Part shown: piece after piece, positions 58,901 through 64,000 of the stretch | Position numbering within the stretch: position 1 is the first letter of the stretch | How the letters are laid out: each line of letters starts with the position of its first letter | DNA from: a plasmid | Direction: 5' to 3' (one strand) | NCBI RefSeq assembly: GCF_057098645.1 | Contig: NZ_JBXSPU010000002.1 | Length of the DNA stretch: 64,000 bases | Program-made: the position numbers

Positions 58901-61900
58901 TAAGTCGGCGAATGAAAAATACCGTCTGGCAGTGTTTACGGATATTACATGCGGCTTTTGCCAGAAATTGCATCAAGATCTTCAATCCTATCTCGACGCC
59001 GGGATCTCAATCAAATTCCTCGCCTTTCCACGTGCAGGTCTCAACTCCGTTGTCGCGGGGAATATGGCAAAAATATGGTGTGCGGCAAAACCTAATGATG
59101 CACTGGATGCCGCAATGAGCCCGACATCAACCATTCCGGAAGGACGGCCTGACGAGGCCTGCCTCGATACCATCAAATCGCATTTCCAGGTAGCTTCAAC
59201 TATTCCGCTTCAGGGTACGCCAACGATGGTAACGCTGTCGGGGAAACCTCAGCTATTCACCGGTTGGATGAGCCCGGAAAATCTGGTGACCCGCATGGGT
59301 GCCGAACAAAAGTGACTTTCCACGACTGCAAGAGGTGTTTATGAAATCTGCAATACTGACAACGTTAATGCTGGTGGCGGTTGGTTCTCAACCCGTCTTT
59401 GCTGCCAAATGCCAGTTCGGGGCCTGCGACGCCGACACTGTGGCCAGCAGTGAGATTCTGGTATCTGCTGCTCAGACAGATAAAGACGCAGTTTTAAAAA
59501 AACTCAATGATGCGACATCCCGCAGCGACGTGATGTCGAAACGGTTTGAGTCGTATCTGAGCAATGACAGGTTAAAGGTGAACACCGACAGTACCAAGAA
59601 AGGCCCTAGCAATGAAATCGCTAAGCCGAGGGATGAGTTGGCGCCGGTAAGGCAGCTGAAAGCCATTCGCCCCGAGCTGGTACAAACACCCATCTTCCAG
59701 CCCATTGTTGCGTTCTATGAACGTCTGGCCTGAGTGCGTCGCTGGGGGTTAGAAGATGTCGCTTTGGCTCAGCATTGTCACCCGGGCAACGGGATTGCCG
59801 GATAAGCGGTATTTAAATGATCCGGTGATCCTCCGTTATTACCAACAAAAGATCCAAAAGGCTCCTTACGCCCTGGTGGGATGGACTCTCTGTTTCATGG
59901 CAACCATTGGTGTGTCGCTGGGACTGGATCTTTCCAACCAGATGTTACTTCTCGTTCTGCTGATATTGATCTTTCTGATGGTGGTGCTCCAGGGGCGGTA
60001 CCAGTTCATGCATCCGGAAAGATGTATCAATGCCAAATTTTACCAAACGGTGCTGGACGATGCGTCAGTCTCAGATATTCAGAAAGCTCAGTTTGAATAT
60101 CTCTTCGTGACCAAAGTGGATGAGCTGACCATCGGTGATCTGTACCGACTCTATGATTTCAACAGAGGAGGCCGGTAAAGACGTGGCATGCAGGTGAGAA
60201 AAGTTAATTTGTGGTTGGTCGTTACAGTGCCGGTCATCAGTTCCAGGGGACCGAGGCGACGTAGTTTCCGGAGCGCAGCGGGGCATCCAGATTCCCGGTC
60301 AAAGCGTCAATCATTGCGGAATACGCCACGCTGTCCGATGGGATCGGCGCATTGCTCTGCATACTGACTTTAAGCACCTGCTGTGCATTTTTTCCCGCAG
60401 GGTAGACTTCCACATCAAGACGACGCCAGAAATGTCTTTGTGATACCGTCTCTGTTCCTACGATCCCACTGACCGGCTTATAGTCATAGTCCGTCTCAGT
60501 TTGCCCGTGCTTATCTTTTCGCGTTGTTTTCTTCTCGATAACATATCCGGTTATTCCCGTCACCGGTAGTTCACTGTATTGCAGATTCTCCTGGGTCTTG
60601 CTGTAACTGAATCTGAGAATATATTCGGGCTGATGGCTGGAAATATTAAACCCCTTACCCGTTAATCCGCTCGCAAACCGGGCTGCAAACATTCGCGACT
60701 GAATACTGTCATCCGGAGCAACAATTTCAAATTTCTTGCTGCCTACCGGGCGGGGCAGTAAATCGTACGCATCAACGTCATTTCCAAAATGATAACCGCA
60801 TCCACATAAGAACGTTGTGGCTGTTAGTAAGAAAAATTGCCGTAACATTCTAAATCCTCCAAAAAGGGTTCTTTAATGAATAATTCCGATTTACCGTGCC
60901 AGTATAATCGAACGCAGGCTGATAACTAACAAGTTGAAATGCGTAAAGGTGGCTATGATTAAATTAAATTATTTAAAACCCGTGGCGTCTGTTTTAATTT
61001 CTGCGGTGATTGCGACGGCTGGCTCTGTGTATATTACGTCGAAATATCTAAAACCCGATGTACCGGGTAACGACGAAATAGGACGAGTGGCTGCTTCCTA
61101 TCTGGTAAAAAATCCCCAGTATCTTCTCGAAGCAGGTAAGGCGCTAGAAAAAGAAAATACTAACGCTTCCCTTGAGCGGATTATCCCCTACGCACCGGCA
61201 CTCTTCGAGACCAAAGAGACACCCAATATCGGACCTGATAATGCGGCCGTCGCTGTTATTGAGTTTTTCGACTACCAGTGTCATTTCTGTATGCAGGTAG
61301 CGCCGGTTGTTGAATCTGTGTTGAGCCAAAGCACTGATGTAAAGTTCTTCTTTAAAGAATTTCCGATCTTCGCTGGCTCAAAACCCGTTTCCGCAATGGG
61401 GGCGGCGACAGGCCTGCATGTGTATCAGACATTCGGTGCGGAAGCGTATCGTAAGTATCACAACAATCTGATGACCAGTGCGTATGTATTCTTCAACAAC
61501 CAGCGTGCGTTTACACTCAATGATTTAGACATGGTTGTGAACAAATCCGGGTTCAACAGCTCATTCGGCGATCGGGAGAAAAGCCGCTATGAGAACGTTA
61601 TCTCCGGAAACATGCAGCTGGGGGAAGCTCTCGGGATTAACGGTACGCCAGGGTTCATTATTATGAACATGCAAAAACCCGACGCTGCAACGACGTCATT
61701 CATCCCGGGCGCTGTTGACGAGGCCACCCTGAAATACGCAATCCAGAAGGCCCGTGGAGGCTAAAGTTACTTTTCCTTCCGAAACTGGCCATGCCGGGTA
61801 ACACCGGCATGAACGTCAGGCTTTGACGACAAGTAACTCATTCCAGCGAGTGGTATACCGTGGGGACAGCATGGCCTGCTTCCCCCGGAAATCCTGATGA

Positions 61901-64000
61901 ATCCCTTCGCAAGCCAGAAACAGAGAGCCTCGATGCTCTTTGTTAAACCGATCCATCACCTTCATCAGTGCTTCACTGCCTCGCCTGGCGGGACGTTCAT
62001 CGAACAGGGATAGCTGCTCAGTGCCATCGGTCATTGACGAAAGCATCACGCCCGCCTTCGCATAATCTATGCCGGGTTTGTAGATTCGGGTCAGTATGGC
62101 GCCTGCCGCACTGACCAGGTCGCGGGTGTCCTGCGTCGCAGTAAGCGGCTCAATACCGCAGCTGCTGTACCGGGTTTCAGCTCTGGCAAACGGGCTGCTC
62201 TGGATAAACACGGTGATTTGGCGAGTCCAGGAGCCATCGTTTCGAAGCTGTTCAGCGGCACGGCCGGTAAAGAATGACACTGCCTCATGCATCTTGCTGA
62301 ATGTATTAAGGCGCTGGCCAAAGCTCCGCGAGACGATAATTTGTTGTCTGACAGGAGGGGATTCATGCAACCGGAAACAGGACTCGCCATGCAGCTCCCG
62401 CCAGGTACGTTCCATTTCAACACCGAATGCCTTTCGTAAAAACCGCACATCGCTGTCATAAAAGTCGCAGGCCGTGATGATCCCGTACGCAGCCAGCCGC
62501 TCACTGATTTTGCGGCCAATGCCCCAGATTTCCCGGGTACTGATGAGACTCAGCAGTTTTTTAATTCGGAATGGGTCTGTAAGGACGACCACACCACCAG
62601 TTGCTGCCCATCGCTTACTGGCGTAGGTGCATAATTTTGCGAGCGTTTTCGTGGTCGATACTCCAATCCCGCAGGTGAGCGAAAGATTGTGTAGCAGCGT
62701 TCGTCTGATCAGGCATCCGTACTCTTCAAAATCTACTATTTTGTCCATGTTTTTCAGTAGCATGAAGCTTTCATCCACGCTGTAACGATCGGTATCCTCG
62801 GCAAACCCCTCCAGCGTTTCATGAAACCGGTTGGAATAATCTTCGTACAACGTAAAGTTGGAGCTCCGTACCGCAATATGATGCTGCTCAATCAGATCCC
62901 GGCATTTGAAGATAGGCATCCCGCGTTTGAGCCCTGTATTTTTGGCGAGCCTGTTCATGGCGATAATGGTGGCATCGTTGTTGCTCGCGATGATGAGCGG
63001 GGATTTGGCAAGTTTGGGGTCCATGGCGCATTCAAATGCCGCGTAGGCTCCATTGATATCAACGTGCATGTACATGAGGAAACTGATTCAACGCAAAGGT
63101 GACAACGCCCCAGATTTCAAGAGTGTCCGGGTTAACAGGTATCGGCTTGAAGGCGGGGTTGGAGGGCATCAACATCAGTTTCGGGAAGGTCTGCAAAATC
63201 TTCACGGTAAACTCGCCGTCAACCAGCGCAACGACGATTGAGCCGTGCTCCGCAGTCAGTGACCGATCCACAACCAGTATGGCGCCGTCGTTTATTCCGG
63301 CGTCTACCATGCTGAGACCTGAGGCCCTGACAAAGAAAGTCGCGGGGCGATTACGAACCACAAAATCATGTAAATTCAGCTCATTGTCTTCGTGTCCGGC
63401 GCACGGACTCATCACCCCGCAACTCAGTAGGTCACTGAAAAAAGGGGTTGTATCACGAGGAGGGGATGCAAAACGTTCAGGGAATACAGACATGAGCACA
63501 CTCGGATTCAATACTGGATATTTAACCAGTATCACCAGATAAAGAGAAAAGATCAAATTTCAATGGCTCAGCATTCGGGAAAGATATCCCGGCACTAAGC
63601 CGTAATTTATGTAACGGTATGATATGGTTCAGCGGATTTTCATTCACGAACATGACAACAGGAATTCCCTATGGCTATCGATACCGACGATAACGATCCG
63701 GTAGACGCAGAGGCGTGCGAGAAGTACCTGGCACAGTTACGGGAACTGGAGGCATACAGGGCGTACCGAACGACAGCTGCGATTGACTGGTTCTTTGACC
63801 AGGCTACCCGGGCCATTCACGGTGAGTTGTGGCTAGCCGCCTGTACGACTTTCCTGAACGGGATTGAGACCTCACTGAGGGTGACGATGAAGCTGAAGGC
63901 GTCGCAGGCACAACCGCAGGCACCAACACCGCTGGTGGACTTAAGCGATATGGCCACACTCAGTAATGCTCTGCTAAGAAGGGCTCACCAGGCCGGTATG

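Follow-up and report, generated by a model that had tools for sequence, protein, structure and literature searches.

A probable polymerase V operon of the umuDC/mucAB type, with a predicted LexA operator, on an IncHI1 plasmid backbone

Polymerase V is a textbook enzyme family, and an operon of this type is already annotated on R27 of Salmonella Typhi, as on hundreds of resistance plasmids of the IncHI1 and IncHI2 groups. In E. coli, umuDC encodes polymerase V (UmuD'2C); its near-consensus LexA box, TACTGTATATAAAAACAGTA, overlaps the -10 element ~19 nt before the ATG, and its -35 hexamer, TTGATC, lies 17 nt upstream of the box. The mucAB operon of IncN plasmids (pKM101 type) encodes polymerase RI (MucA'2B) and is itself plasmid-borne, with a LexA box between promoter and ATG. 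Other mobile-element orthologs, likened here by description and not by sequence, are rumAB of ICE R391/SXT and rulAB of Pseudomonas plasmids; the polymerase gene of such elements is described as a repeated insertion target (PMC4542609). For R27 itself, a transcriptomic study names the two genes mucA and mucB, "involved in UV protection," and reports that they do not depend on HtdA, a plasmid regulator, and that 25°C brings no induction over 37°C (PMC7366339), which fits control by a host factor and not by the transfer circuit. Our literature search on UV protection, mutagenesis, and LexA regulation in IncHI plasmids returned annotation-level mentions only, and in the papers searched we found no LexA-binding, induction, UV survival, or mutagenesis experiment on the IncHI1 operon.

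We analyzed a 64,000-nucleotide stretch of a plasmid contig (NZ_JBXSPU010000002.1, assembly GCF_057098645.1), referred to here as the window. The two-gene pair at positions 61816-63493 on the minus strand is very probably a polymerase V operon of the umuDC/mucAB type that belongs to the IncHI1 (R27-type) backbone, is intact, and is under host SOS control. Its features are as follows.

61816-63075, minus strand: umuC-like gene, 419 aa, Y-family translesion polymerase, catalytic subunit in an enzyme of the polymerase V type
63059-63493, minus strand: umuD-like gene, 144 aa from the ATG, S24 self-cleaving accessory subunit
63059-63075, minus strand: overlap of the umuD-like stop codon (TGA) with the umuC-like start, 17 nt, read from the sequence
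63512-63531, minus strand: predicted LexA operator TACTGGTTAAATATCCAGTA (CTGG-N8-CCAG), with its end 18 nt ahead of the umuD-like start codon ATG
63528-63533, minus strand: putative -10 element GATACT, overlapped by the predicted operator and 17 nt downstream of the -35
63551-63556, minus strand: putative -35 element TTGATC, invariant between IncHI1 and IncHI2
61789-61812, minus strand: GC-rich hairpin, 9-bp stem and 6-nt loop (RNA fold; 66-nt segment, z = -1.86)

The operon stretch is 100% identical in R27 and in ~210 further IncHI1 plasmids. Positions 61700-64000 of the window are identical to the R27 mucA/mucB region (NC_002305.1, 122106-123783), including the same flanks, a DsbA-like gene and a divergent hypothetical gene, and the RefSeq coding sequences there (122106-123365 and 123349-123783) have the same boundaries as both open reading frames in the window. 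The window differs from R27 in its first ~24 kb, which consists of IncF DNA and an IS21-family element and is absent from the R27 match. The operon lies just past IncHI1 Tra1 genes, which encode a TraG-N-domain protein and DsbC/DsbA-like proteins. The first-pass annotation had placed an overlapping pair, a UmuD-like S24 peptidase and a UmuC-like Y-family polymerase, at the edge of the transfer region; the neighboring genes bear out the location, and the open reading frames, Pfam, and NCBIfam bear out the pair itself. As in E. coli umuDC, the accessory gene comes first, and the polymerase gene follows directly downstream.

The umuD-like protein, annotated umuD in R27, matched Pfam Peptidase_S24 (1.7e-22) and the NCBIfam UmuD subfamily (128.3 bits; cutoff, 110), as well as the solved UmuD/UmuD' structures 8gmt, 1umu, 1i4v, and 1ay9 (E values of 1e-28 to 1e-34). 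In the alignment, its Cys25-Gly26, Ser61, and Lys98 correspond to Cys24-Gly25, Ser60, and Lys97 of UmuD. Loss of the Ser/Lys dyad had been named as grounds for abandoning the assignment; both residues are present, together with the Cys-Gly cleavage site in the N-terminal arm. A LexA-like or phage-type repressor was also considered for this gene and ruled out, as the protein is without a DNA-binding domain, its N-terminal arm being no more than ~25 residues long; the LexA model covered the C-terminal domain only and, at 63 bits, missed its cutoff of 111.

The umuC-like protein is identical to the R27 product WP_000281816.1 and contains the Pfam domains IMS (8e-30), IMS_C (3.5e-20), and DUF4113 (7e-16), the last at residues 368-417 with 58.5 bits. 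The NCBIfam UmuC subfamily model covered it over profile positions 1-418 of 422, with 443.2 bits. Asp6, Asp101, Glu102, and the steric-gate residue Tyr11 are invariant with respect to E. coli UmuC and IncN MucB, as are the alignment columns of the beta-clamp motif QLSLF (residues 354-358), which has the QLxLF form. The catalytic residues align with the DinB active site and agree with the active sites of DinB and Dpo4. Two observations count against the UmuC assignment: the score is barely above the NCBIfam cutoff (443 versus 431), and the RefSeq label for the R27 protein is the generic "Y-family DNA polymerase."

The IncHI1 proteins share with E. coli the Cys-Gly site, the Ser/Lys dyad, the catalytic residues, and the clamp motif, at an overall identity of 44% to UmuD and 46% to UmuC. 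They are 50% identical to MucA and 46% identical to MucB of IncN plasmids, and the cleavage site is Ala-Gly in MucA but Cys-Gly in the R27 protein, as in UmuD. The IncHI1 genes do not belong to mucAB proper, as defined by close orthology to the IncN and IncL/M genes and by the Ala-Gly site, and are no closer to mucAB than to E. coli umuDC. By sequence comparison, "mucAB" is a historical label for the R27 genes and not a statement of orthology. The closest relatives are the umuDC genes of IncHI2 plasmids (for example, pEGY1-MCR-1 and pIMP-20710; R478 type), in which the order dsbA-like gene, umuC, umuD, and divergent hypothetical gene is the same, and which are 81% (UmuD-like) and 84% (UmuC-like) identical to the IncHI1 proteins, with DNA identity of ~75 to 77%. 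In a tblastn search against plasmids, all matches outside IncHI were <50% identical except for 4 records at 60 to 80%. By these values, the IncHI polymerase V forms a lineage of its own. The earlier statement that the genes overlap "as in mucAB/impAB operons" consequently stands for the overlapping type of operon but not for orthology in the narrow sense, given a separate IncHI lineage only 44 to 50% identical to UmuDC and MucAB. What this comparison adds to the existing annotation is that the "mucAB" label is nominal and the IncHI lineage distinct, together with the location of a predicted operator orthologous to the canonical LexA box of IncHI2.

That operator had been missed. The first-pass annotation confirmed no LexA box upstream of the operon, and this holds under the strict pattern: a search of positions 63494-63700 for CTGT-N8-ACAG with at most 1 mismatch found no site. 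We discarded the pattern as too strict, since the candidate at 63512-63531, CTGG-N8-CCAG, has one symmetric mismatch in each half-site. LexA sites were instead scored by a heterology index derived from 18 E. coli boxes and compared with simulated 64-kb sequences (n = 300). The site at 63512-63531 had the best score in the 64-kb window (3.1 and 4.5 on the two strands, versus 9.3 for the next best), none of the 300 simulated sequences contained a score of ≤4.48, and on this E. coli-derived matrix it ranks with SOS boxes of strong or medium strength. The CTGG-N8-CCAG form is shared by the UV-induced boxes of E. coli ruvA and cho (PMC3009722). At the orthologous position, IncHI2 plasmids carry the canonical TACTGTTTATACATACAGTA, a CTGT-N8-ACAG box. 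Both half-sites of the IncHI1 operator deviate from CTGT/ACAG, and the operon may be repressed less tightly than E. coli umuDC. Further LexA-like sites in the window, at 17906-17925, 2027-2046, 58401-58420, and 24971-24990, scored 9.3 to 10.6; they were set aside because scores of ≤9.34 arise in ~9% of simulated windows.

The predicted operator overlaps a putative promoter in the arrangement known from E. coli. The -35 hexamer TTGATC is identical in E. coli umuDC, IncHI1, and IncHI2, the operator occupies the same position in both IncHI groups, and the spacing of promoter, operator, and ATG matches that of umuDC and of IncN mucAB. IncHI2 plasmids have AATACT at the same -10 position. From the -35 to the ATG the IncHI1 and IncHI2 sequences stay alignable, whereas upstream of the -35 they are unalignable. 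A sigma-70 promoter scan called nothing on the minus strand ahead of the umuD-like gene; the proposed hexamers match at 4 of 6 positions each (8 of 12 in total), and the scan threshold was 9. The hexamers are weak, and we propose them as putative elements from their conservation and their likeness to umuDC and mucAB. A mechanical list of open reading frames also contained a 165-aa version of the umuD-like gene starting at TTG 63556. This start was ruled out because the TTG is part of the conserved -35 element, the operator would fall inside the added coding sequence, IncHI2 conservation ends upstream of the TTG, and the RefSeq start is the ATG at 63493.

The overlap between the two genes is 17 nt in IncHI1, 17 nt (as annotated) in the IncHI2 plasmid pEGY1-MCR-1, 13 nt in IncN mucAB, and 1 nt in E. 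coli umuDC. The umuC-like ATG has no Shine-Dalgarno sequence in front of it, which suggests that translation of the umuC-like gene is coupled to that of the umuD-like gene.

By analogy with what is known of E. coli UmuD'2C and of MucA'2B, we propose that in the absence of damage a host LexA dimer would sit on the palindromic operator at 63512-63531 and, as this overlaps the -10 of a weak sigma-70 promoter (TTGATC, 17-nt spacer, GATACT), would block transcription. DNA damage would activate RecA, lead LexA to cleave itself, and release a two-gene mRNA. With a 17-nt overlap and a second reading frame without a ribosome-binding site, the polymerase subunit would probably be made through coupling and at a lower level than the accessory subunit. 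Self-cleavage of the UmuD-like protein at the Cys25-Gly26 bond, by means of Ser61 and Lys98, would take place on the RecA filament, and the dimer of the shortened form would join the UmuC-like polymerase, whose active site comprises Asp6, Asp101, and Glu102. Together with RecA-ATP and the beta clamp, bound through QLSLF, the complex would copy past UV lesions and abasic sites with low fidelity, so that both survival and the mutation rate would be expected to rise.

It is possible, if doubtful, that the operon is intact and SOS regulated yet has a weak or cryptic phenotype at the low copy number of its native plasmid, where amplification or derepression would be needed for more than slight UV protection or mutagenesis. 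The rumAB operon of R391 is reported to give a poorly mutable phenotype from its native element and to be a potent mutator once subcloned (PMC8460599), and for IncHI1 plasmids the literature we searched described neither UV protection nor mutability. The weak promoter hexamers point the same way, as does the evidence that the operon is dispensable in nature: in some IncHI1 plasmids the umuC-like polymerase gene is split by ISKpn26, and in IncHI1B plasmids the operon is absent at the syntenic site. Set against these points is strong purifying selection on the operon proteins between IncHI1 and IncHI2 (dN/dS = 0.06 for umuD; dN = 0.10 for umuC, for which synonymous sites are saturated and the NG86 dS was not computable). 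The operon is also kept in >1,000 plasmids, and the catalytic and interaction motifs are all preserved. A main role in plasmid maintenance or as a checkpoint in place of translesion synthesis, for instance through slowing of replication by an uncleaved UmuD2C-like complex after damage or during establishment, or through "plasmid stabilisation," seems to us highly improbable. Uncleaved UmuD2C does have an established checkpoint role in E. coli, but conservation of the polymerase active site, steric gate, and clamp motif argues that selection acts on catalysis. Surveys of IncHI2 plasmids list mucA/B under "plasmid stabilization" genes (PMC4855149), but the label follows annotation custom, not data.

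Regulation by something other than LexA would require the CTGG-N8-CCAG site to be nonfunctional or bound by another, possibly plasmid-encoded, repressor, with expression constitutive or plasmid regulated. The departure of both half-sites from CTGT/ACAG would fit such a scheme, and in R391 rumAB is reported to be under the element-encoded repressors SetR and CroS (PMC8460599); we saw no sign of such control at the IncHI1 operon. We regard this alternative as improbable, given that the site is unique in the window and scores like known SOS boxes, that UV-induced ruvA and cho use the same form, that a perfect box occupies the same place in the IncHI2 ortholog, and that the two half-site changes mirror each other, leaving the palindrome intact. 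The independence of the R27 genes from HtdA and temperature also speaks against it. Within the preferred reading of LexA control, the symmetric change relative to IncHI2 (CTGT to CTGG and ACAG to CCAG) could weaken LexA binding, such that the polymerase is switched on earlier or more leakily than that of chromosomal umuDC. We offer this as an unlikely, speculative extension; if true, exposure to SOS-inducing antibiotics such as fluoroquinolones would turn IncHI1 plasmids into portable mutators of Salmonella Typhi and E. coli. A mutator or UV protection effect, if measured, would have some epidemiological relevance, since multidrug, mcr-1, and tet(X4) resistance is found on IncHI plasmids, but the effect would not be conceptually new.

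Immediately past the stop codon of the umuC-like gene, in the gap that separates this gene from the convergent dsbA-like gene, lies the GC-rich hairpin at 61789-61812. No U-tract follows it, and the terminator scan made no call there; it may conceivably mark the transcript end or act as a stabilizer.

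We recovered both overlapping minus-strand ORFs of the umuDC-like operon at exactly the coordinates given in the first-pass annotation:

63059-63493 (from the ATG), minus strand: umuD-like ORF, 144 aa, upstream gene
61816-63075, minus strand: umuC-like ORF, 419 aa, downstream gene

The umuD-like stop codon lies 17 nt within the umuC-like ORF. The 419-aa protein matched the Pfam families IMS (8e-30), IMS_C (3.5e-20), and DUF4113 (7e-16), and it scored 443 bits against the NCBIfam UmuC subfamily model (curated cutoff, 431), with profile positions 1 to 418 of 422 aligned. The 144-aa protein matched Peptidase_S24 (1.7e-22) and scored 128 bits against the NCBIfam UmuD model (cutoff, 110). 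Both proteins are full length (144 versus 139 aa for the UmuD-like protein and 419 versus 422 aa for the UmuC-like protein). We also considered a LexA-type repressor for the 144-aa product, but the LexA model fell far under its cutoff and covered the C-terminal domain only, so the protein is not a repressor. The RefSeq umuC start is inconsistent among related plasmids, being Met1 (17-nt overlap) in the IncHI1 plasmid R27 and in the IncHI2 plasmid pEGY1-MCR-1 (L002 2556-2572) and the third-codon Met in the IncHI2 plasmid pIMP-20710 (11-nt overlap, 417 aa; L003 2549-2559). Alignment with E. coli UmuC favors Met1 as the probable start in the IncHI lineage.

The umuD-like protein matched the structures of full-length UmuD (8gmt) and UmuD' (1umu, 1i4v, and 1ay9) with HMMER E values of 1e-28 to 1e-34. 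In a four-way alignment of the IncHI1, IncHI2, E. coli UmuD, and IncN MucA proteins, Cys25-Gly26 falls on the UmuD cleavage site Cys24-Gly25; the IncHI protein resembles UmuD in this Cys-Gly pair, whereas MucA has Ala-Gly. The Ser/Lys dyad, whose absence the first-pass annotation had named as grounds for refutation, is present in both the structure and four-way alignments as Ser61 (UmuD Ser60) and Lys98 (UmuD Lys97), residues that we confirmed by script. In the polymerase, Asp6, the steric gate Tyr11, Asp101-Glu102, and the clamp-binding motif QLSLF (354-358) occupy columns that are invariant across IncHI1, IncHI2, UmuC, and MucB, and the polymerase residues also match the DinB active site on alignment. 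Family and residue evidence thus supports the original interpretation of a UmuD-like S24 peptidase paired with a UmuC-like Y-family polymerase, and by every sequence criterion tested the operon belongs to the polymerase V family.

The operon is not new. Window positions 61700-64000 are 100% identical to R27 of Salmonella Typhi (NC_002305.1, 121990-124290), and 214 plasmid records from Escherichia, Salmonella, Klebsiella, Citrobacter, and Enterobacter match this stretch at ≥99%. RefSeq R27 carries both coding sequences with equal boundaries, naming one "Y-family DNA polymerase" and the other [quoted passage not shown] In the R27 literature the pair goes by mucA/mucB and is described as "involved in UV protection," and a microarray study counted both in a small group of genes that do not depend on the plasmid regulator HtdA and are not induced at the transfer-permissive temperature (PMC7366339). 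A comparative study listed "ultraviolet light protection" as a function common to the IncHI subgroups (bioRxiv 10.1101/334409), and mucA/B are routinely named in IncHI2 surveys. Given this prior annotation and literature, we conclude that the operon is an already known, annotated, and ordinary feature.

In R27, the operon is flanked by a DsbA-family gene on one side and a divergent hypothetical gene on the other, with a TraG-N-domain transfer gene a few genes away. The start of the divergent gene (63672-64000, plus strand, running on as L001 9972-10586 in the R27 locus) and the umuD-like ATG are 178 nt apart; the 204-aa product, a hypothetical protein, had no match in a Pfam search. The gene adjoins the operon in IncHI2 as well and is kept in IncHI1B even without umuDC. 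A 9-bp GC-rich hairpin (61789-61812) directly follows the umuC stop, where the dsbA-like and umuC-like genes converge, and is followed by no U-tract on either strand.

The first-pass annotation had reported no confirmed LexA box upstream. This holds for the strict motif, as no CTGT-N8-ACAG site with ≤1 mismatch occurs upstream of the umuD-like gene, but not for a predicted CTGG-N8-CCAG box, the palindrome TACTGGTTAAATATCCAGTA at 63531-63512 (minus strand, read from the upstream strand), which departs from CTGT-N8-ACAG by one mismatch per half-site at mirror-image positions. The E. coli ruvA and cho boxes are also CTGG-N8-CCAG, and both are among the 18 LexA boxes upstream of UV-induced E. coli genes (table in PMC3009722) from which we built a heterology-index matrix. 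The candidate operator scored 3.1 and 4.5 on the two strands, in values specific to this analysis rather than published Lewis indices. Training boxes span 0.3 to 9.3, an optimistic range (leave-one-out, 0.6 to 12.8); the operator index lies inside it and is better than those of the ruvA, cho, recA, uvrB, polB, dinG, and dinB boxes. The runner-up site in the whole 64-kb window had an index of 9.3, and none of 300 first-order Markov simulated windows reached ≤4.48 (minimum, 5.07).

The predicted operator overlaps the second of two putative promoter hexamers:

63556-63551, minus strand: putative -35, TTGATC, 17-nt spacer to the -10
63533-63528, minus strand: putative -10, GATACT, overlapped by the operator

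Both hexamers are weak (4/6 matches each, under the promoter-scan threshold), and the operator ends 18 nt before the umuD-like ATG. The layout is like that of E. coli umuDC (identical -35 TTGATC, a 17-nt gap, and a box 19 nt before the ATG) and IncN mucAB (TTGCCA, an 18-nt gap, and a box 15 nt before the ATG). Upstream of TTGATC, nothing is alignable between IncHI1 and IncHI2, whereas from TTGATC to the ATG the alignment is near gapless (one 1-nt gap), and where R27 has its palindrome, IncHI2 has the canonical TACTGTTTATACATACAGTA. Synonymous sites are saturated between the two lineages: for umuD, dS is ∼1.9 and dN/dS 0.06; for umuC, dN is 0.10 and dS was not computable. Retention of this stretch and, in both lineages, of its palindromic symmetry despite such saturation argues for a functional role of the ∼64-bp putative promoter-operator. 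The TTGATC -35 is common to E. coli K-12 umuDC (L005 406-411) and the IncHI operon (63551-63556), at nearly equal distance from the box, despite only ∼45% protein identity.

The orthologous IncHI2 operon has the same neighbors and ∼77% DNA identity, and its UmuD-like and UmuC-like proteins share 81% and 84% identity with those of IncHI1. E. coli UmuD and UmuC are 44% and 46% identical, and IncN MucA and MucB 50% and 46%. A tblastn search of 72,556 plasmids with the polymerase returned 213 records at ≥95% (IncHI1), 931 at 80 to 90% (IncHI2), 4 at 60 to 80%, and the rest below 60%, where the closest homologues among the matches listed reached ≤49%. Based on the low identity to UmuDC and MucAB and this gap, the IncHI operon forms a lineage of its own within polymerase V. 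The name "mucAB" for the R27 genes is a historical label, not a statement of orthology.

The standard polymerase V pathway is the model that the data support best; its sequence elements are observed here, and its biochemical steps follow by analogy with E. coli UmuD'2C and MucA'2B. LexA bound at the operator would repress the operon until the SOS response derepressed it, and the 17-nt overlap would couple translation of the two genes. RecA would then stimulate the accessory subunit to cleave itself between Cys25 and Gly26, and the shortened dimer would join the polymerase, the clamp, and RecA-ATP in a complex capable of low-fidelity lesion bypass. From the native low-copy plasmid, the operon may give little measurable phenotype: a literature search found no experimental test of the polymerase V operon for IncHI plasmids, and rumAB of R391 is described as poorly mutagenic from its native element (PMC8460599).

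The operon is dispensable, since ISKpn26, an IS5-family element, splits the polymerase gene in some IncHI1 plasmids and the syntenic site of the IncHI1B/IncP Klebsiella plasmid NZ_CP073055.1 lacks the operon. In NZ_CP016184.1 and NZ_CP016183.1 (plasmid search) and NZ_CP023167.1 (tblastn), the umuC-like gene is either split in this way or cut down to its C-terminal DUF4113 part; such copies are natural polymerase knockouts, reminiscent of insertions in rumB and rulB. At the NZ_CP073055.1 site, a HAD hydrolase gene lies directly beside the conserved hypothetical genes.

The window itself is composite, with no effect on the operon. Positions 1 to ∼21386 (∼21.4 kb) match IncF plasmids at ∼99% identity and include traI, traD, traX, RepFIB, and a truncated F-type traG; an ISSso4-like IS21-family element (istA and istB) follows at ∼21380-24023, and the IncHI1 backbone is not reached until ∼24023. 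None of the records in the plasmid and E. coli genome collections searched spans the IncF/IncHI1 junction, which suggests that the window is part of an IS21-bounded IncF/IncHI1 hybrid or cointegrate. The IncF part contains a perfect CTGT-N8-ACAG sequence, ACCTGTATCCATAAACAGTG (2027-2046), with a LexA matrix score of 10 to 12, a level often reached by chance. It lies 24 nt upstream of a minus-strand ORF (1262-2002) encoding a 246-aa tyrosine recombinase (Pfam Phage_integrase).
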